From positions 2,108,001 through 2,172,000 of the forward strand of contig CM120647.1 in the NCBI GenBank assembly GCA_051362555.1: a DNA stretch of 64,000 bases, read 5' to 3'. Source of the DNA: Lingula anatina. Taxonomy: Eukaryota; Animalia; Brachiopoda. The translations under genes were made by a program, and so were the position numbers. This document shows positions 2,254 to 60,600 of this stretch, in pieces; the stretch's first letter is position 1; each line of letters begins with the position of its first letter. The notes under the pieces are model-generated. The model ran no database searches and was not told the DNA's origin. It saw only the letters and a program-made list of their open reading frames with translations.

Positions 2254-3081
2254 CTTGCACGTATCGTAGTGCAGCAAAAACCACGTCCTGTCTGGTATCA
2301 CATGTCTACACTCGCCATGAGGCTGTTAATATCTCCCATAGTCTACTGATACAGCTCTGTTCTCTTATCATATACTACCACAGTCCGGCGTGCTGCAGTG
2401 AGTGGTGAACCGCGAGTCTAGTCAAGACCGCGTCCTTCTCACTTAGTATGAAACAACAATTTAAAACTCTGCCGGGCACTGTGACCTTCGCTCACGTAAT
2501 ATGAAAATAAGAACACCATATATGATTTAAAATTTCAATTGCTTGTTTCTTTTCAAAATTACTGTTATTTTTTCTTTACATTGCAATATCGTAGACGGTC
2601 ATACCCAGTAAATGGCACACTGAATTAAAAGCCATCGGTGTCAAGATCATTGCAGTGCCAGGCAACTGATGGAGATTTGTTTTCTGTGCCGGATGTTAAC
2701 GCTCACTTTTAACCTCTTGTTTTTCGGGCTTGAAACTTTACATGCTGAAAAACAACTCTTCAGCCCATTCCTGTACAAATAAACTACTGCGCTCCGCCAC
2801 TCCTGGAAAAGGGTAGCAGTTTGGGCCTCATGTTTTCAGTGCACTGTGCCCCATGCAGCACCTGTTACAGAGTGGGAGTGAACAGCGCTTTAGTTTTCTG
2901 TACTTAGAATGACAAACATGTTTATTTGAAAAACAAATATCGGTGCACTGGCCCTTATCAGTGTGTATGTACCTTATTTTTGTTGTTTAAGGTAATGATT
3001 CAATCAGGGGCATTGACCGTGTCTTGAATCTACAGTGTTTGTGCTGGTCATATTCACGTTAAATACAAGGTTCGACGGTAA

Positions 3082-3306
3082 GACTGGGTTCCCACAGATT
3101 TAGATCGATCCATATAGATCGACCTAACTCCCCGGGGGTTCAGCTAAATTGATGTCAGCTTCCGGGAGCCAAGCGCGCACAAAAGTTAATTACTCCCATG
3201 CAGCTTTTAGTAGGCGGGTTAGACATTTAAGCCGGTTAAGCTGACAGCAATCTAGGGAGACTCCCCAGGGGGATAGATCGATCTAAATATCTGTGGGAAT
3301 GGTCTC
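3082..3306. mobile_element. Palindromic MITE family A (PIF/Harbinger, Tourist-like)
   Basis: TTCCCACAGATTTAGATCGATC ... GATCGATCTAAATATCTGTGGGAA inverted ends; homologous to copies at 16318, 23873, 28216, 34681 and 56972. Confidence 0.8.
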
Positions 3307-10853: not shown

Positions 10854-11829
10854 ATAAGTTGACTAGTTAAGATATCAACGCTGTGTCCACACTGTGCCTC
10901 AGTGCAAGGCTAGGACGACGCGAGATGGCGCTAGTTAAATCTCAGAGAACTGTGAACCCGTGGTTTGAATCAGCTGCAGCAGCAGTTTCTGTTTTAATAA
11001 AGTAGGTAAAATGAGGGGTGCACAGTTAGTTTTATTTTTCATATTTGTATTGTAGTTTGAGCAGTGTGTATACGCTAGGGGAATTTCATCTGGGTAGCTC
11101 GATATTTATCAAACCAAAATTTTTGTTGGATCAATCAGGCACTGGTAAAAATTTTATCAGATAGTAAACATTATCTCTGCACAAGATAGAATATGTCGAG
11201 CATCAGGGAAACGTTTTTTTCTAATTCATTTATCTTGATTATGTGCCAAGTATGGCGGTCATAGGCGACCGGAATTTGAGTGATTGTGGTTAAATGCAGC
11301 GAGTTAATATTCTAATTATTTTTCATATATAATGTTTATACTTTACTGTAAACACTTAGATCTATATTCAGTCATTTCAATGTTTTTCTATTATTTGCGC
11401 CTATTTATTTTGTACAGCTATCTTCACTGACAGATCATTCTGATGTAAAATTTACGTGCTATATAATGTATAATAAAGTACCACTGTAATCTCAACAGCA
11501 GCCGCAGTAACGTACAGATCTCCCATTGTTAAACTACTTCAAACCCTAGGCGTGACACCTGAATCCATTTAACCTTGAGTACATCGTACAGTTGCTCACC
11601 GAGTTCCAGTCTTTAGCATGCAGAAGAGGCGCCATCAGAACACACGCCCAGTGCCCTGCACCCTGCTGCATGCTTTGCTTCAGTTTTTTTTTCTTTTACC
11701 TTTTCTTTACGTCAGTTTTTTTTTCTTTTGCCTGTTCTTTACCTCGGTTTGTTTTTTACTTTTACCTGTTCTTTACCTCAGTTTTTTTCCTATTGGCCAG
11801 TTTGTATGTTTACAACCTAACTCTAAATA

Positions 11830-19339: not shown

Positions 19340-19731
19340 TCACAAGTTGTTTGACGTCTGTGATGCCGAGCTAAAGGTGGACACCTTTCTCACATTTAGA
19401 GTTTGCTGGGTCATCGACTTCACCATTTTCCTCGTGGACGGAGGCTTGTAGCAATAATGAGCGAGGAAGAAGAACAGGGCAGTCAAACACTTGACGCCGA
19501 GGCCGAGGAAGAAGAAGTTCCTCCCCATCAAGGCGCTGTCGTAAATCCAACACGAGCCGTTCTCCGTGCAGTTCTGCTGCCAGAGCTGACACGTACCGTC
19601 AATGATGGCGCCAAACAGGATTGGACCCGGTACCGTGCCTGCAATGTCAAGGTCACATAGTCAGCCTATACATACACACACACACACACACACACAGTAC
19701 CGTGCCTGCAATGTCAAGTTAACATGGGCAG

Positions 19732-19787
<56 letters not shown>

Positions 19788-22700
19788 TATACATAGAACA
19801 TTGTTTGAACATGTTTGTATGTACTGGTATGTACGTAGATATGCATACATACATTTTACACTAGATTATCTTTTGTATCATTTGCTAAAAACAAAGGCAA
19901 CCAAGCCTAAAGTTATATCTTTATACATGTATATGGTGGACGGCTATATTCTAATACAAAATAACAACTAGTACTGAGAATACAATAATTACGGTCGCAT
20001 TTGAAGTATATTATGTGAGATGTGCTACTTTGAGATGCGACAACTTCGTGGTAACTGACAATAATGTGGCTCTCTCCGAATAACAAAAAAAAACGCAAAA
20101 TTCTCTCGAAGAATGAACGAATTTTTATGTTAATTTTAAAAATTGTTACCTAAGAATCTGATGAAAACCCACTGCAATCCAAGACCAAAGGCTCTCTGTC
20201 CGTCAGGAATACACCTGGTAAATATAATATAATATAATATAATATAATATAATATAATATAATATAATATAATATAATATAATATATAGCACCGGTATGA
20301 TATGAGCTGTAACAGTACCGCCATCTATTGCGCGTTTCACCAGGAATACAACTGGTAGAGATATGTGAGGTCACCAGAAAATACATGTATAATCTCATAA
20401 TATCGTCGGCATTGTGACGTCATCTGTTATATTTCGACCATAGAGAGGTTTGAATCTTTCATTTTTTTTTTTTTTTTTTTTTTTTTAGCTTCCAAAGATG
20501 TAAACAAATTGAATGACACATGATTTCGATGTTACTCATCTGGTTATTTGTACAAGCACGAAAAGTTACTTTCATAATGTATTTAATGTGTTTGTTGTCA
20601 TGTTTATATGAACCAAAAAAGACAAACAATAAATGTACGTTATCTAAATTCTTGTTTACTGCACATTTTTCTACTGTCTCATAGAATTTGGTTTTCGTAA
20701 ATTTACCTATGTTACAAGATACGATAAGGCCCATCCCACCCAAAGCATTCCTCTAAGACTAAAACCCTAATGACCGCTTGATTGCAATCATCCACACCGT
20801 ACCTGAGAGTAACAGAGGTGGCCGGGGTAGCCGACATGAACGTAAATAGTATCAGCACCAAAGCAATGGGTAAGAACAGGTACAGCGTCCAACACTCGGC
20901 GGTACAGCGTCCTGTCTTGATGCTGGCCGCAGCCGAGACGTTTGACCCCAGCTCCTCGGCGATACAGCTACAGTCTGTGTACACCTGAAAAATGTGGAGA
21001 AAATGTGACCGTGGACACACCTCACGTATGGGGTATAGTCAGGGTATACTGTATGCTTCTTATGGGAATAATCCAGTGGTTCAGCTTTTTTTCTAATATA
21101 GCATTATCTTTTGAACACGAAACATGTCTTTTAAAGCGGAATTCCAGGATTGAACCGTTTTACAACCACTATAGCTGGTATAAAGTGTAAATGAATTAAT
21201 GTGGAAATTTGACCAAAGTTTCGGACTGTCAAAGTGTGCCAATATTATTAGAAACGTATTCTAGCCGGATGCAGAAAAGAAAATAAAACATTTTTATTTA
21301 TTCCCCGATTTTCATTTCCTGGTTCCTTCCGCAACGCATAAAAACTATTTGCAGTTTTCAGAAAAACATGTCATCAACATCATACGTCAGTGTAAAAACT
21401 CTCTCGGGACAAGTTTGTACAATTTTCAGTAATGAGCATCGGTTTCAATACTTTGAAATACATTTCTAGTTATAATCTAAGATCTAATAAACAGATCTTA
21501 GTTATAACCAATGTGTTACCTTTGATCCGTTGACCAGCGCAGACGACAGACAGCCGGCGTGACAGGGGGTGAAGTACTCCTGGCCATTCAGACAGATCGG
21601 TTCAAAGCTGGAGGTGGTGCACCCGCACCCGGCGTTACACTCTGCTGTGATGTTGTTAACTTGGACGGTGGTGCTGTAATGTTATACAGACAACATTCAA
21701 ACAAACAGAATAAAAAACAAAACAGAAAATAAACTATTGAAACTGGACCTGGAAGGATACAAAAATGGCGCTGACATCACAGGTGTAGAGGTGGAACCGG
21801 TGTGACAGGAATGGTATTCCTAGGAATGGAAGTCCGGGCTCCCATATATTTATATAATTAATTAGTACAGGTTTAGGTTAGTCGGAGTATTGAGGTTATT
21901 ACATGGGACGAGTGCCACCTGTACAAAGTAACAGGGAACCGAGTTGTTAACAGCGGATTTCCATTCCCGTTACACCCGACCCCGTTTCACATAAGACGTC
22001 GAATGCACAACGGAGTTAAGATTTTACACCAAAATTATTTAGCCGACTTTGATCTAGCAGAAGACTTGGGCCACGCTCTTTGTATAAAGTACTATCAAAC
22101 GGATAATTTACAAAATGCCATATTAGCTTTATGGTTAAAACAAGATATTTATTTTTTTTACATAGGTGTCATTGAGCAAAACAAGGATCGGAGTGTGGGA
22201 GATTTTTGAAAAAAATCATGTATGGCGTGATCCTTATAAAAGTGTCAACCTTTTCGAATTCCTTTTTTTTTTTCAGTCCAACAGTATTCTCTCACATTTC
22301 TTTTGGGTGGAGTCTAAATGAGTGCCTCAGGCAATACTGGTACAAAAAGATGTATACAGCAGGCCTTAAATAACTCCCCAAACATTGTCCAAAGTCTACG
22401 ACCCTGCACACAGTACCTGTTTGGGTAAGGTATGTCAACTCCGAATACGGACGGCGTTTCACAACTGATCCAAAACGAGGCAGCCAGCAGTGCTGCCATG
22501 ACGCAGGCTGTCATACTGAGCTTTAACATTCCTTTCACTTTCAGTTTCAATTTGCTGGAGATAATGCCGCCAAGCAGCTGACCACCTGCCGCCCCGGGAA
22601 CGGCCACGAACCCTGGAATAGGTCAAGGTCAGAATAAGCAAACTTGTGTGCACGCTTCTTCACTATGTAAAATCTTCAAATAATGAATAAGGTTTTGAAA

Positions 22701-25051
22701 CAGCAACAATCCCTTCTATGCTTTTCATTTAAGTTGAATATATCTCATGCAAATATTACAGTTGTCAACTTTCTCTTCCTAGGTTCGTAAAATCGTTGGT
22801 ATTCCGCACAAACGACTGCAGAATGTGATGACCAAGGTTACCCCGGCCACCTCCCTGGGGATAACACTGACAGGTAATTAAAGCTTTATTTAACCCTAAT
22901 CTAAGACACTTCTCCCCACCTGTCAACATGGCCGCCCAGCTGGCCGTCAGTCCAAACTGGTTTTGTAAGAGTTTGGGGAGAAATGTAGCGAAGCCACTGG
23001 TGACTAGCCCTTCAGTGCAGCCAGCCAGCGTCACGAACACGAACGTTGGGTTCTTCAGAAGAACCTGAAATATTTCACTTCAAATGATTAAATTTTTTCC
23101 ATGCTTTGTGTTGCGTTATACGACAGATATTTGGATCGATCAATGATAACAGAGAGCTGATCTGATGATTTAAACTTTCTGGTTTTGTTATTAAGCCGTC
23201 ATGTAAGGGTGTATCTAAACTACGCTTGGGCGAGTCTCATGAAATGTACAATATCAACCCATATTATAGGGTTGAGGTGATTTCAATGCAAAATAGAAGC
23301 ACAAAACAATATACTTATTAATCAGATGAAATTAAGTCACATACACTGTGACGTCAAATGAATCTATCTACATACTTTCACAGACTTTTGCATTAAAATA
23401 TTCGGAGTCCAAAGCTGAATATCACAAAATCAAACAAGTTGAAATTTGCACATAAAAGATGACAAAAAGCCACATGTCCACACATGTCTACAACACATTT
23501 CTTCCCTCAGAAGACGTACCTTTGCCGCGGTTGGCATGTCCCTGATTGACTTTCCAAATCCAGGTCGGTTGACTTCGTCTTCGCCGCCATCTTGGTGGGC
23601 CTGGGACTCTCTGGTTAATCGCACCTCCTTGGCGGCTGGAAGTATCAATCACTTCACTGATCACTCCAGAAACTCAGCTGAATGACTTCAGTGCGCTTTA
23701 CTCGGGATTGACAAGAGCACACAATGTACTGGTTAGGAGAAATTCCCAAATCTAAATTTTTAGGCTAGGCGCATAGTTAGGTGTTTAGTGACGTCATAAT
23801 ACTTAGTACACTAGTGTCGTCAGACGCGTTTCATAAAATAGAAGACCAGTATATAAAGGGTGACGTATTTTAGACTGGGTTCCCATGCCTAGATCGATCC
23901 ATCTGGATCGGTCTAAATCCCTGGGGAGTCTCACTAAATTGCTATCAACTAACCGGCTGAAATGTCTGTCAGGCCTACCGAATCAGCTAGGGGGTAAAAT
24001 AATTACCCTCAAGCAGCTATACTAAGCGTGACAGACATTTAAGACGGTTACGTTGATAGCAATTTAGTGAGACTCCCCAGAGAGATGGATCGATCCAAAT
24101 ATCTGTCTGAATGGTCCCTTAATCTACCCTACTGTCATTCAATCAGGAGAACGGGGCGTATCCCCCGTGAACCCCTGACTTACTGGGGAGCTCCCTGGGG
24201 TAAGCACACAGAGCCACGGTCACCGTCCACGCTAAGAAACCAGCCATCACAAACCCCAGCCACCATGCTCCAACCCAGCGAGGATCTTGTGGGGTTATGT
24301 TGACACTGAAACGAACACGTGCACGCACGCACGCACGCAAATACACTGAATTAGTATGAGATGGACAGAAAAACATATGATCGATCAATAAATTTAAGTT
24401 TCATTTAACGTTTCTTTTATGTCATCAGTGATTGAATCAAAAATTATATTCGATAAATTAGATCAAAAAATTTAAATTCTGCAAATAGAGAGATAGCCAA
24501 ATGCCAATTTAAAATGTTTGAATCCTATTATTATCTCCTAGAGTTCTGTACATGTATCAAGGATTACTTAGTATCGTTATCAATAGAGTACTTATATTTC
24601 TCTCTGTCGTATATACATTATTTTTGAAATTATAAATACAAACAAAACTGATATATTAAACTCACTTTTCTACATTAACATTTTCAAAGTCGACGTAGAT
24701 ATTAAGGAACTGGCCTCCGACTATGTATCCAATTGCTGGCCCCAAAGCGGAGAACGCGTACAGAATGCCTGGATATGGGAGAATAGCGAGATAAACATTT
24801 TGGTATATTCAAATTGCAATTTGATGTTATACTATATTATTCTTTTAAAAATTAATAATAATAATAATAATAATGTGAATTTGTTCTAGCACAATTATTT
24901 TACCATAGGACATCAAATCACACGTCACATAAATATGAACTTAAGCTCGTATAAGCAATAATTACCTGCTAATCTATAATAAGGGCTTAACAACCTACAT
25001 ACCCATCTAATATGTAGTAGAGTGAGTGTAAAGCTACAAATCTCTCCCTCC

Positions 25052-25084
<33 letters not shown>

Positions 25085-28000
25085 AGAAAGAGGGAGGCGG
25101 CATCGTGTACTAACCTATGTATATAGGCGACACCTTGGTCTTCACGTTCTCGTCTATAAACACTGTCCCCAGGGAGTACAGTGTGGTCCCGCCCACCCCG
25201 TGCAGCAGCTGTCCCAGGATCAGTACGTACAGGTAGTTCTGGAGGTACGAGTTCTGTGGATTAACGGTACACGCTGTGGAGTTCCCAGTGCCTGCCGGAT
25301 ATTGAATGATAGGTTAATATTGCTGAGTGAGGAAATAATGCTGTGAGGGCCGTGGTCAAGCCCTGAGTTTCAGAGGCTACTTGAGACTAACCTCTCTGCT
25401 ATAAGCACAGCTCAGCCGTTACCAGGGCCATCTGAAACTCTGGTTGACTAAACAGTTTATTCCAACGAAATAATGTGTATAAAACGCGTATTCTAAAATC
25501 AAATTAAGAAAAAAAACCAATGACGAAATGTATCTTTTAAGATTTAGAATAAAACTTTTTTTTAGATTTAAAATTCTATAAATCGTCTGTTGATTAGAAA
25601 TGGTAGCGTCTGCGACAAGTCAGTCAGTATTGAAACCTTGTGCTTTGTAGATAAAACATTTTTAAAAACTCTTTTGAGGCGATTTACTTTTTTTCACGTA
25701 ACAATGTGACAATATAAAAATGCTAGTTCAACTCTGCGTTGACAGCATTGTGTGTGGAAATTAAATCAATGGAGATTATGTCTGCACTTTCCCCGCGTTG
25801 GCTGTCGCCCCCCCCCCCTTTTACCTGTACATGTATATGCAATGGTGCCTCTCAACTGATATAACATTACCTGTACATGTATCTGCAATGGTGTCCCTCA
25901 ACTGATATAACATTACCTGTACACGTATCTGCAATGGTTCCTCACAACTGATATAACATTACCTGTACATGTATCTGCAATGGTTCCTCTCAACTGATAT
26001 AACATTACCTGTACATGTATCTGCAATGGTACCTCTCAACTGATATAACATTACCTGTACATGTATCTGCAATGGTACCTCTCAACTGATATAACATTAC
26101 CTGTACATGTATCTGCAATGGTGCCCCTCAACTGATATAACATTACCTGTACATGTATCTGCAATGGTACCTCTCAGCTGATATAACATTACCTGTACAT
26201 GTATCTGCAATGGTACCTCTCAACTGATATAACATTACCTGTACATGTATCTGCAATGGTACCTCTCAACTGATATAACATTACCTGTACATGTATCTGC
26301 AATGGTACCTCTCAGCTGATATAACATTACCTGTACATGTATCTGCAATGGTACCTCTCAACTGATATAACATTACCTGTACATGTATCTGCAATGGTAC
26401 CTCTCAACTGATATAACATTACCTGTACATGTATCTGCAATGGTGCCCCTCAACTGATATAACATTACCTGTACATGTATCTGCAATGGTTCCTCTCAAC
26501 TGATATAACATTACCTGTACATGTATCTGCAATGGTTCCTCTCAACTGATATAACATTACCTGTACATGTATCTGCAATGGTGCCCCTCAACTGATATAA
26601 CATTACCTGTACATGTATCTGCAATGGTGCCCCTCAACTGATATAACATTACCTGTACAGGTATCTGCAATGGTGCCCCTCAGCTGATACAACCCCGTGG
26701 TGAAATGTGGCATGCTCATCACTAGAGAGCCACACCCCATGATGAACGCTGCTGTCGACAGCAATCTGGAAATATGAACAGTTTATTACTGAATATATCC
26801 GAAAAATATGAGTCTCTGATTTTCCTCAAAATGCTTTGAAAATAATACTTGAAAGTGCTGATTCAAGAGAAAAGTTGGTATCCTTCTTGCCAAAAGGTAC
26901 ATTGCAGTATGTGTTTGAAAGTGACACAGGTATCAAAAGAATAAAATGTTATATAAATGTTGAAATTTGTATGGATGTGACTAAACTAATCAATGAGACA
27001 TGTACATAAATGGAAACATGTAATTAATTTAACGAATGTTGTCCATCAGCTATCACCCTACAGGATAATTCCCGTGGGAGGCACCCTGAGCTTCAGAGAT
27101 AACTTGACACTAACCTCTTCACTATTAGCCTATCTTCATCGTGTCAAGTTACCTCTGACGAAAATAGTTTGACCTAGTTTATATAAGCCAATCGAATCCA
27201 TGTTTCAAAATTTTTCACCAAAGTTTGGTGAAAACGCTGATTGGTTGACCGTCAATCGGCAATCCTCGGCTGATTCCGCAAGCTCCACACTAACAACATA
27301 GTTATTGTCGAGTGCGGAGACATCCGAGTAGTTCCGAGTGCATAACCGTACACAAAGAAAGCATGGAGTATATCGGAATTGAAACCAGAGCAGTTTGATG
27401 CCCTGCATAATTATCTACTGAGGGATGATGTATTTTGCGTGCTGCCCACAGGTTACGGCAAGTCCCTGATATTCAGCCTTATCTTTGATTGGTCCGGATT
27501 TGAACAAAGCGCGCTTTGACTCGTTCGCGTTCATTGGCTAGATCGTTCAATGAGTCATTGAGTGCGGGCTTTAAATTTGATTGGCGGGCGGCGGAGGCAA
27601 TCGAATGTGGTCAGAGGTAACTTGACACGATGAAGATAGGCTATAGAGAAGAGGTTAGTGTCAAGTTATCTCTGAAGCTCAGGGTGGCTGTACGTGGTCG
27701 CGCTTCGCTTGGGAGGGGTCTCTTACATCAATTTTTTTTTACAGAAGAGTGCATGGTATAGGAGCATTTCTTTCTTTTTTTTTTTTTTTTTCATAAAAAT
27801 TTATTTGTTTAAGTTTTCTGCGGTTGAAATCCAAGATCTAATGCATTCTCAAACCAGAATTGCGTTGTGTTGGGCAGTTGCCCTGAAGCCTGGTTTGGTG
27901 GCGGATGAGTGTGGGCACATTGTTCACAAGACAAAAATTCACTGATGTACTTGAATATATTTACGTACCTCGGTTTGTGCGCGTGCGCCCTAAAGTAACT

Positions 28001-28942
28001 AATGAGAATGACGGTGGTCCCCGCCGCAATGTCGTAGGCGCTGGAGACGAGGCCCACGCGAGAACTGGGCAGGTTAAAACGCCTCTCTACAGACGTGGTG
28101 TTCACATTGTTGATGCCATTCACAACAAGACCTGGAAAGAAGGAAAACGAGGATTCATATAATGCACACCACCATCAAGATAAAGATGTATGCAGGCATT
28201 CCATTTACAGCCATAGGGTGCTTTCCCAGAGATTTAGATCGATCTAGAGATTAAGATTTAGATCGACCTAACTCTCTGGGGGTTCACGCTAAATTGCAGT
28301 CAGCCGAGCGGGCACCATAGTTAATTACCCCCTTACAGCTTTTAGTAGGCGGGACAGACGCTTAAGCCGGCCAAGCTGACAGTAATCTAGTGAGACTCCC
28401 CACAGGGATAGATCGATCTAAAAATCTATGGAAATGGGGTGATAGATTAAGCTGGTAAAATACATTTACTATGTCGCAAGGGCACAAAATTGGACTACCT
28501 TGGAATAAGTCCTTGTGATTAGGTCGAAACGTCGTGATCTCCATTTCAAATTAAGATCCAGTATTAGATTTCTCATTATCTCAGCATGATGTGATTGGAT
28601 GAATCGAAATATTAATTTTGATAAATACTAGATTTCTTCGATTCGTGAGAAAAAGAGAATAATTAGAAAAAAAAATCAAAAGAAAAACAAAAAGGTAGTT
28701 TATTCACCTTGTATCGTAGTAAACCAGCACATGAAGACGAGAAAGGCTTTCGGGTTGTTGCACACCTGAAGCCAGCCCGGTCTGCACCCCCTGTAGCCGC
28801 ACCCCGGGGGAAACTCCGGCTCTAGGCGGAACTCGCGGTCAGCTTCGGCTTCTATCGCCTTTTGACGGACGGGATCGTCAATTTCCGTCGACATGTAGCC
28901 ATTATCGCTAGTCCGTTTTAGTTCAAATCCTTTCGAAGGCAT
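19340..28942 (-). CDS. SLCO: Organic anion transporting polypeptide (OATP/SLCO family, SLCO4-like), paralog 1, 689 aa
   Basis: 13 phase-consistent GT-AG exons: 28942-28708, 28131-27969, 26765-26653, 25291-25115, 24768-24666, 24305-24184, 23635-23520, 23064-22920, 22612-22417, 21673-21520, 20984-20803, 20214-20150, 19638-19340 (2070 nt). OATP signature DPRWVGAWWLGF, ERRF..SS..G...S.YD, Kazal-like CNAGCGC..FEPIC..YFTPCHAGC, PGPILFGAIIDGTC..W. Confidence 0.95.
19672..19783. repeat. (CA)n tracts inside a duplicated splice-acceptor segment
   Basis: GTACCGTGCCTGCAATGTCAAG occurs at ~19630 and ~19697, each copy followed by a CA tract. Confidence 0.85.
20221..20286. repeat. (AATAT)n pentanucleotide microsatellite
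   Basis: Directly visible; abuts the acceptor of SLCO exon 12. Confidence 0.95.
21797..21978 (+). mobile_element. MITE family E
   Basis: GGTGTGACAGGAATGG...CCATTCCCGTTACACC; a second copy lies at 62203-62368. Confidence 0.7.
23873..24118. mobile_element. MITE family A (fully palindromic variant), TTA TSD
   Basis: TTA on both flanks; long inverted arms; in SLCO paralog 1 intron 6. Confidence 0.8.
25821..26692 (-). repeat. 46-bp minisatellite, 19 copies, made of the SLCO exon-3 3' end plus GTAA donor
   Basis: Unit TTACCTGTACATGTATCTGCAATGGTACCTCTCAACTGATATAACA starts every 46 bp from 25821 to 26649; the last copy is the real exon end. Confidence 0.95.
27082..27686 (+). mobile_element. Internally deleted TIR transposon with RecQ-like helicase remnant (Academ-like)
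   Basis: ~77-bp TIRs CACCCTGAGCTTCAGAGATAACTTGACACTAACCTCTTC...; 27352-27480 translates TKKAWSISELKPEQFDALHNYLLRDDVFCVLPTGYGKSLIFSL (SF2 Q-motif plus Walker A). Confidence 0.8.
28216..28441. mobile_element. MITE family A, ATA flanks
   Basis: Homologous to 16318-16532; ATA on both sides. Confidence 0.8.
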
Positions 28943-42690: not shown

Positions 42691-43014
42691 TTATGCATAG
42701 GAGCGTCTATCTTCCCACCTCCTGGGCGAGCATACCCCCTCCCTTCTAGACTATATATTATACATAGGAGCGTCCATCTTCCCACCTCCCTGGCGAGCAT
42801 ACCCCCTCCCTTCTAGACTATATATTATACATAGGAGCGTCCATCTTCCCACCTCCCTGGCGAGCACACCCCCTCCCCTCTAGACTATATATTATACATA
42901 GGAGCGTCCATCTTCCCACCTCCCTGGCGAGCACACCCCCTCCCCTCTAGACTATATATTATACATAGGAGCGTCCATCTTCCCACCTCCCTGGCGAGCA
43001 CACCCCCTCCCCTC
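42691..43014 (-). repeat. 67-bp tandem repeat (~4.8 copies) of the fucosyltransferase C-terminal codons and stop
   Basis: CATAGGAGCG recurs at 42696, 42763, 42830, 42897 and 42964. Confidence 0.95.
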
Positions 43015-44594
43015 GCCACCATTGGTCAAGGTTCTTATACCACGTGGGTTTTCTCTCTCCCACCTCCTGCATCTTCCTGCACAGTCGGCACCAGAAGAAC
43101 GTGTTCACCGAATGAAAGGAGCTCTTCCAGCGGAAATACTCGTTGTAAAGATCGTCATTTTTGTCGAGTTTGTGCAGATATTCAGCCAAAACCTTGGGGC
43201 TTTTGAAGTCATCCACGTTGATATAGGAGTGCGGAGGTGCTGCCCTCTTGTAGTCGTCTGGGCGACCCCCCATTGTGATTGGTATGACGTCGTGCCTAAA
43301 AAAGGATTTCGTAAAATACGTGTTATAGGCAGTTTCGCCCAATGTCTTCTCACGTTTACAGACAGAGATGGAAGTATGTGAGACAGAAAAGGGTGGGGCG
43401 TAGAATGGCGGACAGGGTTAAACAAAGACAATTAGCACGTAGGACGGACAAAAAGGGTAAAAATGAGAAAAAGGGCGGTACATACAAAACAACCACAATA
43501 GTTAAAGGGAATAAAATCATTAGAACCTTACATTTTATGCAAATATAATGTACTCGTAGGTACTCTGCAGAGGATAGTCAGGGAAGTTTTTGCAGTTTTA
43601 CCGCACATGTGCGCTGTTATGCTTACTAGTATACAAAAAAAACGTTTAACATGTATCTTTCCGAATCAAGTGAAAGACGACGTGGGCAAAAATGAGATTC
43701 GTCTTTGATGTTGGCAGAAACACACGACAAGTTATTTTTCCAGCAACGATCTGTCACCTTTATCCTATAAACATTTATTGGGATCCAGATTGATTAACCT
43801 TACCCTAAACCATTCAAAAAGAACTTCTCAGTGATGTAATCTCTGCAGTTCGAATTTTCAAACGATAAATAAAACTTGTAGTCCCTGTCCAAAATATCCA
43901 GGCAATGGGGGTCTTCCTTTGAACACGTCTTAATACCACATCCCCCGTAAATGTCCACTGGCATGTGTTTATTTAACTCCTCTGCATATCGTCTCCGGCC
44001 GTTCCTGTCCCCGCCACAGTTGGAGACAAACCAGGCTATTTTCTTAGTCTTCCCCGCCGCATAATTCTTCTTCGTCGGTTTTGGTGTGTTGAAGGCGGAG
44101 TCGTGGCCGGTAGTCATATTACCATAGGGAACATAGGAGCCGTATGGAGCCATGAGTGTGGAGTCGGTCCTGTAACTGACCGTCCAGTTGATTAGGTTGT
44201 TCAGTCCTTCCAGCCTGGGGGTGTGGTGGGGGGACTCCAGCAGGTACAGGATCCAGATCTGGTGCCAGGGTTTGCGATGCCATGGTTTGACGGCCTGACC
44301 CATTAGAAGGATGGCGTCTGCCTTCGACGCCATTGCCCTATCCGCTGTCACGAAGCAGTTCTTAACAGGGCAGTCATCTGCGTTGAATTGTTCCTGTCCC
44401 CCCTGCATCCCCGCCGGTAAGCCGGTGTACACCAAAATAAGCTTGAGTCCCGCGGAAGAGGCGGCAAGGGCGTCATTTTGGTATAAGTTCACGGTCTGTC
44501 TGCCTCCGCTATACGATTTGATATACGTCCAACTTACAACGAGAAAACATGTCAAGGAGATGCCATACACTATCCGCTTCAAGTGGCACCTCAT
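42959..44594 (-). CDS. Alpha-1,3-fucosyltransferase (CAZy GT10, FucTA-like), 375 aa
   Basis: Exons 44594-43804 and 43295-42959 (GG|GTAAGG ... TTTAG|G; 1128 nt). N-terminal TM anchor IVYGISLTCFLVVSWTYI; motifs ESP, NWTVSYRTDS, AWFVSNC, YKFYLSFENSNCRDYITEKFF, YNEYFRWK. Confidence 0.93.
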
Positions 44595-48731: not shown

Positions 48732-49862
48732 TCACGCAGAGCTAATGACAGTAGAAGTGGACGCTGTTGTCTCTGTAGTGGACGCTCTTTGTCTGCTCAG
48801 GCAGTGATCATCATTTTCAGCACTCCCAGTTGGTGTGTCAGCTTTCCAACAACGATAACGAATACACTGCATAAAAAATTTCACCAACTCGTCTCGAAAA
48901 ATCCGAGCCGACGCGACATAAAGAAAAAAGTTAGTATTGTGATTCAGCAAACTTATCAGGAACAATATTGACCAAATGAAGTTATGTTCTGTGGAAGTGA
49001 TACTGAAGGAAGTAAACCCATCTACGGCTACCCGGTAGATTTGGAAGATTACTAAAGGCCCAGTGATCACGACGAACGCTGTCAGTGTCGTTAACAATAG
49101 AATGTTCACTTTACTGTTTGTTGATTCCTTGCCAGCACTGCGCTGCTTTTGACCGGTCAGTTGCCGCCTTAAAGAATGACTCTTCCTCAGCTTCCATACG
49201 ATAGCGACCGTCATCGCAGTAATGGCGATTGCGATTGCGAACCACAGTGTATACTCTAAACCGGTGAATATATAAAGTAATGTTGTTGATGGTGCGTAGC
49301 ATAATGTTATATTTGGAGAAGTAAGTAATAAGATCAAAACTGCAAGACCAGAACACGTCAGCAGAGCTTTCCGTCTCGTGCACAGGGAAGTGGCTTGGAG
49401 TGGTTTGAAGATTATTATAAGTCTCTCTACAGTTAGCGCTAATATGTAGACGAAGCAGAGCAAATAGAATGCGCTTTTCAAAATAATCGCTATGACAACA
49501 AAAGCTTCACACGACAGTTTCAGTCTGCTGGTGAACACGATGCATTCCCACGACTGCTGCAGGAGACGGAGCTGGTCCGCGCCGGCAAGGAACAGGATGT
49601 AAACGAAAGTGGATTTCTGTCTAAGACTCGGACGTCGAAGAACCACCAGGAAGGTGAGGAAGTTACCAACCAAACCAATGGCTGTCAGGGCGTGCACAGT
49701 GTTACAAAAACAGGTCCTCCCGGCCAGCCAGCATTGCTGCTCGGAGGAGAGCTCGGCATCGTTCACGTTGTCCAAACCATACCTGCTTAGATTGCCAAGA
49801 GAGGCGACGCTGGAGTTGCTGGTAAAATTACCAACTTCGGTCTGAATATCAACCTTATCCAT
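48732..49862 (-). CDS. Intronless class A (rhodopsin-like) GPCR, peptide-receptor-like, 376 aa
   Basis: Seven hydrophobic segments; GLVGN (TM1), STFVYILFLAGAD (TM2), LTVERL (DRY variant), P in TM6, NHNTNFFLY (NPxxY variant), helix-8 IFRDEL; N-terminal N-glycosylation sequons; Ser/Thr-rich tail. Confidence 0.92.
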   Translation of the reverse strand: MDKVDIQTEVGNFTSNSSVASLGNLSRYGLDNVNDAELSSEQQCWLAGRTCFCNTVHALTAIGLVGNFLTFLVVLRRPSLRQKSTFVYILFLAGADQLRLLQQSWECIVFTSRLKLSCEAFVVIAIILKSAFYLLCFVYILALTVERLIIIFKPLQATSLCTRRKALLTCSGLAVLILLLTSPNITLCYAPSTTLLYIFTGLEYTLWFAIAIAITAMTVAIVWKLRKSHSLRRQLTGQKQRSAGKESTNSKVNILLLTTLTAFVVITGPLVIFQIYRVAVDGFTSFSITSTEHNFIWSILFLISLLNHNTNFFLYVASARIFRDELVKFFMQCIRYRCWKADTPTGSAENDDHCLSRQRASTTETTASTSTVISSA

Positions 49863-50089
49863 TGTACATGTGTTGCCTTCAAGTAATTGATTCCCTCCCC
49901 CTTGGTGGTAGACGACGCAGTAATAGCCGGTTCGTAGAAAAGATCATGAAATAAGCGAAGCTGGTAGTAAGAGTATATCACCAATCCTCATCGTAGGTCT
50001 AAAGCCCCTACTCTCGACACTTAATGACTTTGTGCGATCTGATTGGTCGAGGTGAGCTGAATATGGAAGTATATACCCCGCCTCCACCC

Positions 50090-51663: not shown

Positions 51664-54623
51664 ATGACGTCAAAACGTGCATTACCAGATGATAATACTG
51701 CGAGCAACGATGTGTTGCTAGGCAACGAATCTGACGTCACATGTGGTTGGTTTAATTGGCGACCAAAATGTCTTCAGGTAATAGTGAGTTTCATGGAATG
51801 TCAAATTTAGTATATTTTTAAGAACCATAACTTTCTGATGATCTTAATATGATACACTTTTAGGGATCGTTTTATACGCTTCAAATTATGAATGACGTGA
51901 CTGGAATGTATGTGATTTATTTTAATCAATATATGTTATAATATCTCGTTAGTTTGTACCCCTGACGTTTACAAGTACACTATTTCACTACCTGATAACT
52001 ATCATGGGACATAACCTGAACTGTGATTACAACAAGTTAATCAGGAATTAATCTCTACTGATTGCTAGATGTTTAAAGGTTTTGTTTATTTAATTTAATT
52101 TAATTTAATTTAATTTAATTTAATTCAACCATAATTTGGCAAACAGTCGTCAGGAATCTCTCAATGTGTTTGTATATTCTACATCACCAGGTATTTAGCT
52201 CGGCTAAGTGGCTGGTGGCCTTCCTATGCATCGCCAACTGCGCCCAGTCCATGGTGGCCGGGGGTCTCCTCTCAACTGTCATAGGGACGCTGGAGAAGCG
52301 GTTCCAACTCACGAGCACCCAGACTGGCATCATTTCGTCCAGCTACGACATGGGGACGGTCCCCGCCCTCTGCGTCATTGCCGTCATAGGGAGACGAACC
52401 AACAGGCCGCGGTTCATAGCGGCTGGCCTAACCCTGGTCGCAATAGCAACCTTTATGTTCAGTCTTGGTCATTTTACAACAGGACGATATGTGTCCACTG
52501 CGGCGTCATCTGTTGACGAGAATATTTGCGTTTTGAACTCCACGTCTACTGCAGGGTGTGGCCGAGAAGAGTTGGCTGATTTCTCAGGAAAAGGATTGTC
52601 GAATTATTTTTATTTGTTCGTTTTGTCGTATTTCCTTGTTGGAATAGGGTCCTCCCCAATATATACCGTGGGTGTGACATTCATGGACGACTGTCTCACC
52701 AAGGAGAACGCTTCTTTTTGTATAGGTAGGTACGCAGGCTTTAGATTACAGGGTCGTAGGCTGCGGTGGAGGGTGGGGAGTGCCCCCCCCCCCCCTCCAA
52801 GAGTTTTTTTTTTTTAATACAATTTTGAGGTTCTCTATATAATGTATTTTAGCCTTTTCCATTCTATCATGGAAATACATACTACAGGAAATACAAACAA
52901 CCTGCTTAAACTTCAACAGATAATCCAAGAATAATACGACCATGAAATATTAGTGATGGTATACATATTTAATATTGTCGGTGAAAACGCTGCCTTACAT
53001 AGGCCGTACCATGCGACCACGTGAACCTTGCTATGCTTTCTCTCCTTTATAAAATGTAAAATGACCCTACTTTGTAAAAACTCAGTTACGTTTGGAGTGT
53101 GGGAAGGGAAATGACAGACGAAGTTGCCCCTCCCCACCCCCGGTCCTGAACTGTGAGTGGCAGGGATATGAAGTGGTGTTAACTTCCAGTAATTCTGATA
53201 TGTTTTCTTCCCCGTGGTGTCTTTCCAGCTGTGTTCTACGCCACTGGTGTCCTAGGCCCGGTGCTGGCCTACATCCTGCAGGCGGTCATTGTGGAGGAGG
53301 TCTACGTGGATGCGGACGTTCTGAGCGCAGCAAGGTGAGAGTCCATCACAGTGGCGTATTTAGGGTGGTGTCGGGGGGGGGGGGGGTCCTGACGGAGAAA
53401 ATCACACCAATGGTCCCCTCTCGAAATAAGAATTTCGACTAGCTGAATCACAGTTCGAAATGGCACCATACTTTCTCTAAAATATCAAAACTTTTCGGGT
53501 CCCTTCAGCAAATATACGCTAAGGAGGAGGGGGGGGGGAGTATCAGCTATGCATCAGCGGACCCACCACCTTTAAATGATCCTGGATCCGCCCCTGCATC
53601 AGGGAGTAATCAATAACGCTGGCGATAGCATGATATAAAGAAGGAGGCAGTTCTACCTCCCCTGGCCCTCAATCTCTACCTAACGTAACAACTAGAACAA
53701 TTCTGACTTCACCTTAAGTGTTATGGCCACGTAAAACTCCACCCCACCCTCTGTCGAGAGAGTCTTGGGAATCCAATGCGGCGCAGTTTGGCCGCTGTAC
53801 AGGTGAGCCCACCTGTCAGCGACGTACACATTTAGTAGTATATTTGCATAACAGTCTCATAGCCCTTTTTAAATTAATCTTAATTACAATCCGAGGAGGA
53901 TCCTATATTACAAATCAGAGATCATTGCGATCAGATGTGCACAAATGAAGAATTAAGCAAAAAAAGTACTATTGACAATGAAGATTACAAGCACTACATG
54001 AATACTACAACTTGTAAGCCATGCAGGATTTTTATAACTTCTGTCAATTTAACGATTGCAACCCTAAATGCTTAGATTTCTTCGTTGGCACCTTCACTAT
54101 CTATTTATGATATTTAAAAAGCGGGTACAACGGTTTTTGCTGTTAGACGAATTCTATTATACTCTATTTAATTCATTAATTTACTAATTTATTGGCAGTG
54201 GCATTCTTTAATTTTGTTTTTTACGTCTTTGAACATTGTTTATATTCACAATAGTTTCATTTAACAGTTTATCTGTAGAGAAGGGGAGCAACGCCTGGCT
54301 CGGCGCTTGGTGGATTGGGTATATTATAGCAGCGTCTCTTGTGGCGATGATGATTCTCCCTATAGGTGGACTTCCGCAAGACATGCCAGGTTCTTGTCAT
54401 TAAATTAACATTGGCTATATCTGAGTTTAATTTTTATTAAAGAGGATAGAACTTTGTGAAAAGACATGCTGTCGCAAAGCGTATCAGTCATTTCTTCCTT
54501 GTTTTATTTGTTCTTATTTTATTAACAATTTATTCTTAGTAGATTTGACCATTTTGCTAGTTAACGAATTTTCAGAAATATGTTATAAAGCGTCTGTATC
54601 ATTTTAACCATACAGTATTTTTG

Positions 54624-54656
<33 letters not shown>

Positions 54657-57600
54657 TTCTAGGTTCATTTCCATTTCTAGGCGCGAAAAAAATCCGGGAA
54701 AGTAAAATATCAGAAGTGCATACCTCTTCAGACGACAACTCCAATGACGTCATGACCACCACGCCTACAGGCCTTGAAACCAAGGTAACCGCCAAGCAGT
54801 GCTGTCAATCAATACAGGTTCTCTTCACCAATCCCGTGTACATGTTCATCACAGCGAGCGCCATCTGTGAGCAGTTTATTGTGAGCGGATTCACGTATTT
54901 TGGGCCAAAATATATTTCAGAGCAATTCTTGACATCTGAAGGACTAGCCGGATCACTGTGGGGTAAGGGTAATCAGAAACGGTATTTTTTTTTCTTTTGT
55001 CCACACTTTCTTTATTTTTCAATGCGAATCGTGCCCTGTTCAATATTTCAGAACATGGCATTTTGTCAGTGATTGTGCTGTTTCGGAAAGATCTCTAAGG
55101 CGCGGACCACAGGTACAAATTGAATGATAGATATTTAACTGGGCCTACACCATTCCCTATGTATAAAGGCATGAACGCTTTTCATATGTGTCATTTGGGG
55201 GAATATTGTTTTCATAGGCGCTGGGTTTCCAGTGGATAAAGTTTTTTTTTCAAAAAATTAGTTGTAATTTACAGTATTGGCATTTCTTAGGGATAAGGGG
55301 AACCGAAGTAATTTAGAATTCAGAATCAGGGTCTCTATGATAAAAAAATATAATTTTTTCCTTGACAAGGAGGTCTGCCCTTTTCAAGTGCACTCTAGTT
55401 CAAAATTTTGGTATTCGTCAACGTGATTTTGTTATTGTTTCAGGTGCAGTCGCCATTCCCGGCGCGGTGGGAGGGACAGTGGCAGGTGGAATCGTCATCA
55501 AGCGGTACCGTATGACCTGCAAGACCATTCTGAAAACAAATTTCTTTCTCGTGTTCATTTCTCTCCTGTTCGTCCCAGTGTTTTTTCTACAGTGCCCAAA
55601 TCTGGAGTTTGCTGGGATTACTACGGGATATCACAATGGCAGGTAATATGCAGGGGCGGATTGAGGCCGTCTTCTGGGTCTTCCAGATTTTCAATTTTAC
55701 ATCGACGGGCATCTAATTTTTTTCTGTTGGAAGACAGTCCAAAACGGAGGATGGATCAACAAAGATAGTTTGGAAAACTGTCCAAAAATATCTCTGAATC
55801 CGCTCCTGATATAGCCTTGTTGAAAGTGGCAATTGATTGGCGCTTATTTCAGGAGGAGATTGGTCAGCCGTACCATCTGTCACCGTCCTCTGAGAGAGGG
55901 TCAGAATTATAATCCCAACCACCATGAAATTATTCTAAATTACGATTTATATCATAGGCAGGGGCGGATCCAGGTTTATTTGAAGGGGGTCCGTTTTTTT
56001 TTTGGAATGACAGGCCTCGGATTTTTGAGGGCGAACGGTGCCATTTGGTACGATTTAGAACTATGATTAAGCTTTACTATCTACAATTAAAAAGACCCAG
56101 TTCAATAGAAAATGGAACGAATTTTTATATCAACCCTGTATCAATTTCTGATTCCCCATCGAGTAAATTCTAAATCATTCTTACGTATATGAAGATTAAA
56201 ATAGATTAAAAATAAATGAAGAGAGAGCGAGACAGGTTGAACACAAAGAATGGAAATTAACGGTATTTCGGTACAGAGTTTACTTGTGAATGACCCTTAA
56301 ATCGGGGCTTAAGTAAGCTCAGTATCTGTGGGTATTTCTAAGGGCGAAAAAAAGGAAGCCAAGATATGAAGTTGACTCGTGCACAATTAATTGAATGCAC
56401 TTCATTTCTTTACGTACTAAAAGAGAGGAATGTCAAGACTCGCCTACCGCCCCCGGTTCCTTTGTTTAAACCCCTTTGACTTTTCTGCTGACAAACCGAC
56501 TTTTCTCGACCTGAGCTCAAAACTACGGATGATTTTTTACCTAATCTGGGTTATAGAAACAAGTCAAAGATGTTTCTCTACGATAGATTAGTTAAAAAAT
56601 AACCGAGAGAAAAAGGCTTCATTCTTAGTGTTACTTGCGGTATGAAACATTTACATGTATATACTGCTCGTAGAATATAAATTCCAAAAAGCATGCCATA
56701 AAATCTATAACATTATAATATGCGCCTCCGAACAAAAACTTCATAGAATGAGGCAAAGCAAAGATGCTGTTGTTAATGCTGAATTAATTTGGTTTTTACT
56801 TAAAAAAATAGAAAAAAATAAATTAGATAAAAAAGTGTTTTCAAGTAAATATTCAATAAAATATTAATTCTCTTGCGGCGTAGCATCCATTTTATATATA
56901 ATGAAAATATAATTTTTACCAATCTGATTAAATACAGGATAAAATATAGAACGAACAACTTCAATTTCAAAGGCTCTATTCCCATAGATTTTAGATCGAT
57001 CTATCCCCGCGGGGAGTCTCACTAGATTACTTTCAGATAATCCGACTTAAATGTTCGTCCCGCCTACTACAAGCTGTAAGTGGGTAATTAACTTTCGTGT
57101 CCGCCCGGCTGACAGCTATTTAGCGTGAACCCCCAGGGAGTTAGGTCGATCTAAAGTAGGTCGATCTAATCTATGGAAATGGGGTGTTTGATTAAACCAG
57201 CCCGACTTATTCCACTATAAATTTATTAATTTTCACACGTTATTGAGTTTTTTCTTTTTATTATTTTTATGAAGTACTAACAGTATATCGCAGATTAAAG
57301 CTCGAAATACTGTCAATGCATTGCATCAAATTGTTTTAATTTGTCAGTTTTAATTTTGTAGTTTATTTGAAAACAACAGTTTTCACGCACGCTCCTGTCA
57401 ATATACAGAGACGGGCTACTTATTTCCCCGGCCCTTTATAAGGAACGAACAAAACCGGTAGTTTTTAATTTTACCTGGCCACTAACAACATTATCTCGGC
57501 CTTTTCCCTCCGTAGCACATGAAAAAAATGACAAGGTTTTTATACCATTCGTTTTTTTTAAATGATCCAAAAATATTCATTTTGTGTAAAAGAACATGAG

Positions 57601-60600
57601 TACGATTAAAGTAATATAAGTTCCGATTTCGTACGAGCACCAAAGAAAGGATTATGAAGTAACATACATCGACAACAACACTAATTCATGTATAGTCATT
57701 TCACATCATTTCCAAAAAAATTGACGACTAATTTTAGTACAAGAACCCGGGACTCTTTCACGTTGTTAAATTTCAGTCTCTCGGTTGAAATAAAAAACCC
57801 GATGTTTTTTAACGCGCTGCAAGAAAAAAAAAAGAAAAGAAAATGCCCCCTACCTCCAGAATGTTACGACATGTATTGTTATAGACAGGTATGAATCAAA
57901 TTCAAACAGGCTAATTCAACTTTGATGGAAGCTGTCAAGCGCACACGACTATGAATGACTGTTGTTTTTTTTTTAACAAACGTCAAATACAATTACTACA
58001 CTCTTCTCTCCGAACATGTAAAACTCCAAAATTCACATCTTTTGATTGACAAGATGCCAATCAAATCCATCAGTTTTGAAAGCTGCTGTCAAGTAGTAAC
58101 AGCTTGATTGGCAGGTTATATAAACAAACGTCGATCAAAATCATTACTATAGTCGTCTAACACGTAAAGTTGCAGCTTCCTACATCCTTTGATTGACAAG
58201 CTGCCAATCAAATTCAGTTAGTTTTGATAGTTGCTGTCAAATAGTAACAGCTTGATTGGCAGGTTATATAAACAAACGTCAATCGTCGTGCACTGTGATT
58301 TCTCTTACTGTGAAGCAGTGAGTACGCCAAAAGAGAGCGCTAAAATCTGAAGTTAGTAATTAAATTGCAAAATATTTCAAGAGAATATGTGAAACATGTT
58401 TCCAAAACTAGTTCTCTTTTTGAACCCTTCAGCGTGTCTAATACGACACTCTAGATTACAAACTATTTTGTAAAAAGAAGAATTTAGCAAAAGAAACCAA
58501 TTTAAAAACAGATTCAAGTAAAGAAACATGACATTTGACTTTTTTTTTTGTATTATGTTTGGAATATTGACAGATTCTTTTACTGTCAAAGTGTACTTTC
58601 TGCTAAATAAATAAATAAAACGATACTAATTCATCTTCATTAAAGGTGACATTCGTGTTGTGGTTGAAGTAGGTGGTTTAATTGGCTAAATGTTAGCAAG
58701 GACCCGTGATAATAAGTGGATGGGAAACAAAAATATTACTGTGAACAAAAATATTACTGTGAACTATTCTCTAGACATTTTCAACAAACAAACCGCTACT
58801 TCGCTCTTGTAACTATTTTGTTAGTTTATTTTACTGCAGTAAAGCGTGGATAAAATAGTTCCGAACGCCCTCACAGTGCCAGGGCAGGGGCGGATCCAGG
58901 ATTATTTGAAGGGGGGTCCGGAAGGACAGACCTCGGATACGAAGCCGACCATTGCCCCCTTTGTGTGGGGTTTGGGGCCTGCTCAACGCCCCCAACAAAG
59001 AATTATGTTTTGGAGAGCAAACAGTGCCCTTTGGTATGGTTTAGAACTATGATTTAGCTAGCCAAAATTCTAATTTCAAGAGGGGAATATTGGTGTGATA
59101 TATTTTTCAGAAATCGAAGGTGGGGTCAGGACCCCTTCACCCCCCCTCCCCTCCCCTCTAAATCCGCCACCGATAGGAGTGAACTGTCGTCTTAACTCTA
59201 GTGTGATAACCATATAATTATGTTTGGATGTTTTGAGACTGTGAGTTAAGATGTTTAGATTCGCTCTTGCACCAGGGTAGCACATGCAGGGATATTGATC
59301 TCAATGTTGTCTAAGTCGGGGTTTGTTTCATTGAGGTTTGCAAAAGTTTATTGCAGAAACAAGGGTGAATCGGAAACAACAATATTGAAATGTATCCAAG
59401 ATACATGTTATTAACGATGCATGCCCTCAATCTCATGATAGTAAAAACAATTCTAAGTATAATGGTTAAGCCTATTTTGACTTATGTATTTAGTTTGACT
59501 TATTTTTTTTTCTTATTGTTGTGACCGAAGTTTTTTTTTTTTTTTTAATTTAAAAAATTAAAAAATTTTAAAACATTATAGGTATGGATAAGATATAATG
59601 AAGAAGAATATCTTGTTTCAGTGACGTTGGCTTCACCAGTGTATGTAACACAGAGTGCGACTGCTCTGCTCTCCAGTACAACCCTGTGTGTGGATCAGAC
59701 CTGGTCACCTACTACTCCCCCTGCCACGCAGGCTGTCTCAACTGGACCACGATAGGGGGCGCCAAGGTACAATGTTAGAAGTTATTATCACATGCATTTA
59801 GTGAAATCTCGCGACTGTAAGACAGAATGCACACCATCACTGTAGCGTGTCACAAAACCGTTCTTTGGGTTTTCCTGTTTGAATGAATCTTGATGTTATT
59901 CACAAGGATTTTACTATGTGCCTTTGTTACAATTAAATAATTAATCTGACGCCTCAAAAGTTGCACATTTTTACGTACTTTTACATTAAGGATCTGTGAT
60001 TCTTAGTTCTAAATTGCTGGCAACTAACAAACAAGTAAAGAGACTGCTTTTTCACCGAATTATCCCGAATTCACCGGCAGATCGGACCACACTACCCGTT
60101 TTCAAGGTGTGTGTCGGTACGCATTTCACAGTATCATACCCTGAACAAATTTTGAGATGAGATGTACTACTTTCCAGCCCCGCTGAGAATCATCACTATC
60201 ACATCGCGTACTGGGCAAAAGCGGTGGCGCGTCTGATACTACAAAGCGCGTACTGACGCACATCTTGAAAACTGGCAGTGTGGTCCGATATGCCGGTGAA
60301 TTCAGGATCATTCGGTACCGAGTCTGGTAGTTGGGTAGGCCTGTTTTTAGTTATTAATCATTTATTGTTTTTGTTTAGACGTATACGAACTGCAGGTGTG
60401 TAGCAGCGAGTCCATCAGTGAATGCGACTGCCGTGGACAGTGCTTGTACTGGCCTGTGTCCAGTGGCGCCACTGGTCGGATATCTGTTCATACTCCTCAT
60501 ACTCATGTTATTGGTGTTTGCCGCCAGTGTTTGCGGAATTATGGGAACGTTAAGGTATTCATTTTTATTACTTCCAACTCCTTATCTTCTTGGCGAGTAA

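Follow-up and report, generated by a model that had tools for sequence, protein, structure and literature searches.

Genes and repeats at the locus

The window, i.e., the whole 64,000-nt stretch of Lingula anatina DNA analysed here (contig CM120647.1, positions 2,108,001 to 2,172,000; GC content ~40%), carries on its minus strand an SLCO4C1-like (OATP, PF03137) gene whose coding span, 19340..28942, comprises 13 coding exons. The gene was recognised by a PF03137 match and by a full-length orthologous model, and it is almost residue-for-residue identical to the RefSeq L. anatina SLCO4C1-like proteins P0121 and P0128, two near-identical models located on separate scaffolds. A protein search using exon 1 as query returned no match, and exon 4 (25115..25291, minus strand) matches P0121 and P0128 at 100%. 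Exon 3 (26653..26765, minus strand) is a coding exon of 113 nt ending in phase 1, and its final 40 nt constitute the first unit of a tandem array that continues into the following intron. We take the segment encoded by these 40 nt to be part of the second extracellular loop of the transporter. This loop is poorly conserved, with a Q>E replacement in one of the DNA runs described below (X10) and wide differences among bivalve homologues. Of the two RefSeq models, the partial one starts within the repeated peptide, which could mean that its scaffold, or the model itself, begins at the array.

Of the four tandem arrays in the window with a period of at least 30 nt, three overlap a coding-exon edge, a hint that exon-edge arrays are common in Lingula; the fourth lies at 11673-11788. 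At the last SLCO exon, the acceptor and the initial 9 nt exist in two 67-nt copies (19625-19758, minus strand) together with a TG microsatellite, placing a decoy acceptor 67 nt upstream of the real last-exon acceptor (19638). An alpha-1,3-fucosyltransferase gene has another array at its end (42691-43025, minus strand), where its final 18 codons and the stop stand in five 67-nt copies that run 3'; this array served as a control. The fucosyltransferase exon is 94% identical to an L. anatina protein, the next match being at 59%. The array copies follow the window allele, not RefSeq P0001, at two residues, and the distal copies bear missense changes.

Other elements populate the region. Within SLCO intron 2, an element with ~30-nt inverted ends (~27080-27690), likely a non-autonomous transposon, is covered by numerous diverged RNA reads, and in run X15 this coverage is strongly one-sided. 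Copies of a short repeat family (28214-28441 and 3080-3290), built of direct and inverted internal parts, show depths in the thousands in each of the four RNA runs. On the plus strand (52119-61538), another SLCO gene, distantly related to the first and beginning with a large coding exon, faces away from it, and a single-exon rhodopsin-family GPCR frame of 403 codons from stop to stop lies at 48732-49943 (minus strand).

Structure of the exon 3 array

Tandem Repeats Finder delimited the array at 25821-26693, with a period of 46, 19.0 copies, 96% matches and no indels. Each unit consists of the last 40 nt of exon 3, GTAA and a 2-nt linker, and 19 CAG|GTAA donors succeed one another on the minus strand at a spacing of exactly 46 nt, from 26653 down to 25825. 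The 19 repeats at a 46-bp period and the 18 extra CAG|GTAA sites reported in the initial annotation are confirmed, with a repeated exon part of 40 nt. The 18 intronic units, all of them exon-end copies followed by GTAA, occupy 25821..26648 (minus strand). In the window, a poly-G run on the gene strand (25808..25818, minus strand) lies directly behind donor 19, ~830 nt away from the donor in use. In X10, a run of this kind comes straight after the single donor. Such a run might have promoted the first slippage, or might influence donor choice.

Splicing and the putative microexon

Donor 1 (26649..26652, minus strand; CAG|GTAATG) is the authentic donor and corresponds to the junction in P0128, which contains one copy of the repeated peptide at this place. 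Among donors 1-5, it is the only one leaving an open frame into exon 4: donor 2 causes a frameshift with a stop inside exon 4, and donors 3-5 run into the TAA that belongs to the second donor. The prediction that only the first donor is productive is therefore borne out for the five donors tested. Read-through to a later donor (2-5) shifts the frame, as was also predicted, although the TAA within the array is met only from donor 3 on.

The units were further proposed to contain, each of them, an in-frame microexon of 12 nt adding D-T-C-T to the protein (first putative copy, 26607..26618, minus strand). The underlying AG-12 nt-GT motif is in phase 1 and exact in 16 of the 18 intronic units, whereas unit 17 has ACG and unit 19 is devoid of the AG. 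Upstream of the putative acceptor, pyrimidine content is 40-45% in the three units checked, with competing AGs, as compared with 50-90% at seven real acceptors, and the first copy would require a 34-nt intron. Since its acceptor is pyrimidine-poor, its intron would be of 34 nt and its span takes in one of the five silent sites described below, the microexon cannot account for the silent pattern. No isoform with a DTCT insertion was found among the RefSeq models, where P0121 and P0128 (the two cluster members) carry a single DTCT.

Exon 3 is covered in one of four RNA runs only (X18), at a depth of 2-3 (about two reads). In this run, the 81-nt bin 26600-26680 has a depth of 0.36, equivalent to 29 nt, while the depths expected are 0.358 for splicing from donor 1 to exon 4, 0.346 for the microexon and 0.914 for donor 2. 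This bin mean weakly suggests that one X18 read ends at donor 1. The SLCO protein is most likely unchanged by the array.

Variation among units and silent bias

Compared with the exon, the intronic units exhibit six shared changes at five sites, all six being silent in the exon frame. TTG>TTA (26690, minus strand) is found in all 18 intronic units and ACC>ACA (26660, minus strand) in 17, the remaining unit having ACG; CTG>TTG occurs in 16 units, AGG>AGA in 13 (one of which also bears a private stop change), GGC>GGT in eight and GGC>GGA in four. This agrees with the earlier claim that every site differing in several units is silent. Private changes are confined to units 17-19 and number four: AGA>TGA and ACA>ACG in unit 17, GGC>GAC in unit 18 and GAT>TAT in unit 19. 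The three non-silent ones and their distal position had been recognised, but the silent ACA>ACG had been overlooked. The array interior is made up of five recurring unit types, and divergence did not change significantly with distance from the exon (rho 0.38, p 0.12).

A random change in the unit has a probability of 0.24-0.33 of being silent. Under this mutational null, the shared changes alone (6/6 silent) yield p 0.0002-0.0012 (0.003 if the type of base change is taken into account), and all changes together (7/10 silent) yield p 0.004-0.026, such that the silent excess holds nominally for the shared changes (p 0.0002-0.003). A fairer null lets the exon, too, drift at its silent sites and brings these values to 0.004-0.014 and 0.05-0.16, respectively. 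All of them are nominal and post hoc, the locus having been chosen for its silent look. The silent bias is real but moderate. No clear silent bias is seen in the fucosyltransferase control array, in which one of two shared changes and two of six changes overall are silent, the silent boundary first base of units 2-5 being left out.

Array length in other DNA runs

Contigs of four DNA runs (X1, X3, X4 and X10) were aligned to 26600-27000. Summed contig depth on the unit is ~5000 in both X1 and X3, versus 55-62 and 74-92, respectively, on the flank, while X4 displays a single contig of 76 nt (46+30, loop size) at a depth of 33 versus 19. Extra units per haplotype are roughly ~29 in X1, ~18 in X3, ~1-2 in X4 and 0 in X10; these numbers are estimates from contig depth, scaled to simulated window contigs, and not counts. 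The amount of exon-boundary units is very different between runs bearing one species label, the units being present, short or absent. In X1 and X3, unit words are many times deeper than the flank, so that the array is no product of misassembly, although its exact count of 19 is that of the assembly. Additionally, the unit contigs of 60-61 nt in X1 and X3 have the sizes obtained in simulation.

The array is absent from X10, where both haplotype contigs leave at 26649 straight into a poly-C flank that resembles the stretch beyond unit 19 in the window. X10 differs from the window at 33 positions in 315 nt (26655-26969; ~10%), with two amino-acid changes in exon 3. Such divergence, as read from the contigs, is in line with X10 being a distinct lineage under one species name.

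Silent states in coding copies

The initial annotation viewed the array as an archive of selected exon alleles, repeatedly swapping with the coding copy. At 26690, the coding copy of the diverged X10 reads TTA, the state of all 18 units. The ACC/ACA site (26660) lies near contig ends, where its letters are unlisted, and was addressed by contig-end logic using words of 31 letters (k=31). In de Bruijn simulations, the exon contig ends at 26630 with the window allele alone, at 26661 with two states at 26660, at 26653 when the coding copy equals the intron copy, and at 26691, 26684, 26679 or 26676 with two states at other array sites. The observed ends are 26661 in X1 and X3 and 26653 in X4. By this graph logic, and not from letters, ACC and ACA likely segregate in coding copies, with two states in X1 and X3 and the intron-copy state in X4. 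By the same logic, the coding and intron copies of X4 share their last 30 nt. Successor contigs expected past 26661 are absent from the listed contigs.

Leu TTG, AGA, GGT and GGA were found in no coding copy of X1, X3 and X4 (six haplotypes, X1 possibly including the window's own). The X1 exon contig has no other letter and a near-diploid depth, the X4 exon contig has one other letter, and the single difference in X3, of uncertain position, is most simply explained by a flank variant that X4 also has. In the unique part of exon 3, these three runs contain 3 silent variants in ~18 silent sites. Two of the five silent sites are traced to coding alleles, TTA by direct reading and ACA from contig ends. 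In the reverse direction, exon-type ACC occurs in none of the 18 window intron units. A contig of X3 (26615-26674) with one other letter and a depth of 116 may mean exon-type ACC in intron copies; simulation matched its record in 2/1500 cases with intronic ACC and TTG, and in 0/1500 in each of five other settings, and this contig is given no weight in the argument.

The comparison of haplotypes consequently supports the archive of exon alleles in part, through TTA in X10 and the ACA deduced in X1, X3 and X4, while the states of the other three sites are in no sampled coding copy. Frequent, ongoing swapping is unsupported, as Leu TTG, AGA and GGT/GGA are common in units yet missing from these coding copies. 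Since ACC is found in 0/18 window units, exchange cannot be frequent.

Simulation of exchange

A toy forward simulation was run with 300 chromosomes, an artificial 15% advantage maintaining arrays and three non-independent draws per replicate. Old simulated arrays contain 24-34 shared changes, a fraction of 0.29-0.35 being silent with or without the exon taking part. With six shared changes, besides four private ones, the real array is far below 24-34 and therefore looks young. In young-array runs, where population silent diversity was 6-12% and intron copies were under no selection of their own, silent changes made up 0.60-0.85 of the shared changes with exon exchange versus 0.31-0.36 without. 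Draws with at least four shared changes were all-silent in 38/302 cases with exchange versus 0/115 without. Even with exchange, all-silent draws are a minority (15/201 among those with at least five shared changes). Simulated private changes were mostly non-silent in both settings. The pattern is thus reproduced by simulated exchange, and the toy simulation shows that such an origin is feasible, no more. It predicts that 59-79% of the silent shared changes recur among six other coding copies, whereas 1/6 was seen, or 2/6 including X10. We argue from this mismatch, together with the 0/18 for ACC, that exchange is episodic and partly from unsampled haplotypes, or that chance contributes.

Origin of the silent pattern

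We favour, as the probable explanation, a young, untranslated and length-variable minisatellite whose shared changes are silent through crossovers with coding copies of different haplotypes, and which forms a passive record of exon alleles. Slippage or unequal crossover would have duplicated 46 nt across the donor, and out-of-register crossovers would then expand the array and shift it onto new exon haplotypes. The same crossovers would place pieces of other coding alleles into intron units. The imported differences would be silent because coding alleles have already passed purifying selection, and the array's own new mutations, i.e., the private ones, would be random. By analogy with human F7, the spliceosome would take the most upstream donor, leaving the protein unchanged.

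A single seeding from an older exon allele carrying TTA and ACA, with no later exchange, is possible without being probable; the three sites varying within the array would then be neutral, and silent by luck at a locus picked for that. Once the two sites so explained are set aside, five of the eight remaining shared and private changes are silent (p 0.03-0.11), and the overall 7/10 loses much of its force with an exon drifting silently beside a freely drifting array. That the three open-site states are in no sampled coding copy also agrees with this scenario, as do the proportions in the fucosyltransferase control. The four remaining shared changes are nevertheless all silent (4/4; p 0.003-0.011, or 0.024 by type), an outcome that none of the 115 simulated arrays with at least four shared changes attained without exchange, and the identity of the X4 coding and intron copies over 30 nt also speaks against a lone founder. 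Selection may instead act indirectly, if units enter the coding position so often that arrays with many missense or stop units are purged, while distal private variants, rarely recruited, escape. Non-silent changes are indeed confined to units 17-19, farthest from the exon, and the high diversity would imply a large population where weak selection acts. Transfer at a purging level would, however, load the coding copies with array states, contrary to what is observed, and old simulated arrays with exon exchange had no silent excess (0.29-0.31, in a small population with limited power). End units of comparable arrays escape homogenisation regardless, according to the accessible text of PMC3087553, and the loop concerned is poorly conserved. 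We judge indirect selection improbable.

Direct codon selection on translated units, through the 12-nt microexon or other internal splice sites, is less credible still and very improbable in our estimation. The motif is in phase and exact in most units, and splicing from a second or third donor occurs in certain human genes (PMC1557585, as far as its available text goes). The weakness of the acceptor, the four silent sites left outside the microexon, the premature stops from donors 2-5 and the single DTCT in both RefSeq models all contradict this half of the initial proposal. Additionally, X10 lacks the array and X4 has a very short one. As for misassembly, in whose favour it could be noted that no listed contig spans the array, the depth and size of the unit contigs in X1 and X3 reduce its probability to a negligible level.

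The preferred reading, a passive record fed by crossovers, can be extended to a broader one. Exon-end minisatellites in highly polymorphic marine invertebrates could be two-way allele reservoirs, in which the intron stores silent alleles rare in the exon, returns them, and stays free of common missense or stop changes though untranslated. We regard this extension as unlikely, though worth stating. If it were true, the codon-like conservation of these introns would reflect their recombination with the exon, and, if true genome-wide, it would provide a simple case of protein selection shaping non-coding DNA through recombination. Silent-biased intron differences need not mean translation.

Comparison with known exon-boundary minisatellites

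Donor-spanning minisatellites have been described in human F7 intron 7 (37 bp x 5-9), IFI6/6-16, CBS, LMNB2 and PDGF (Borensztajn et al. 2006, PMC1557585). According to the accessible text of that article, the most upstream donor is used, and some genes leak to the next one or two donors. These arrays and that of Lingula have in common an authentic donor followed by identical pseudo-donors in polymorphic number. The F7 unit includes 4 exonic bases only, such that no codon-level pattern is possible, while 40 of the 46 nt are exonic in the Lingula unit. Variable internal tandem repeats are also known at exon-intron boundaries of human duplicated genes (PMC2812944). They resemble the Lingula array in being boundary repeats of variable number, which could create new splice forms or introns, and differ from it by transcript support for altered structures, none of which was found for the Lingula array; the word 'synonymous' is absent from the available text of PMC2812944. 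A literature search, with subscription journals mostly outside its reach, revealed no report of such repeats in brachiopods or Lingula, nor of a silent bias in boundary repeats.

The closest likeness is with the 'mirage' minisatellites of amphioxus, described in Adh3, the globins BflGb6 and BflGb9, PGBD5 and troponin C (Ebner et al. 2010, PMC3087553; PMC3902484). As far as the accessible parts of these two articles go, mirages are copies of exon-intron boundaries in variable number, with a homogenised interior and diverged ends, the end units escaping homogenisation (PMC3087553), and they leave splicing undisturbed; somatic instability was reported for the Adh3 mirage. Their texts, to the same extent, contain no analysis of silent versus non-silent changes, and their host is a lancelet rather than a brachiopod. 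Mirages and the Lingula array share head-to-tail boundary-spanning copies, repeated splice signals, a unit within the 10-160 bp range, haplotype-variable copy number and a uniform interior with diverged ends; undisturbed splicing may be a further likeness. With its boundary-spanning units, repeated splice signals, length instability and homogenised interior with diverged ends, the Lingula array is a mirage-type exon-boundary minisatellite, a class already described in print, which the initial annotation had overlooked. It extends mirage-type repeats to a brachiopod, and its being present, short or absent among runs of the same label means that the birth of such an array can be studied.
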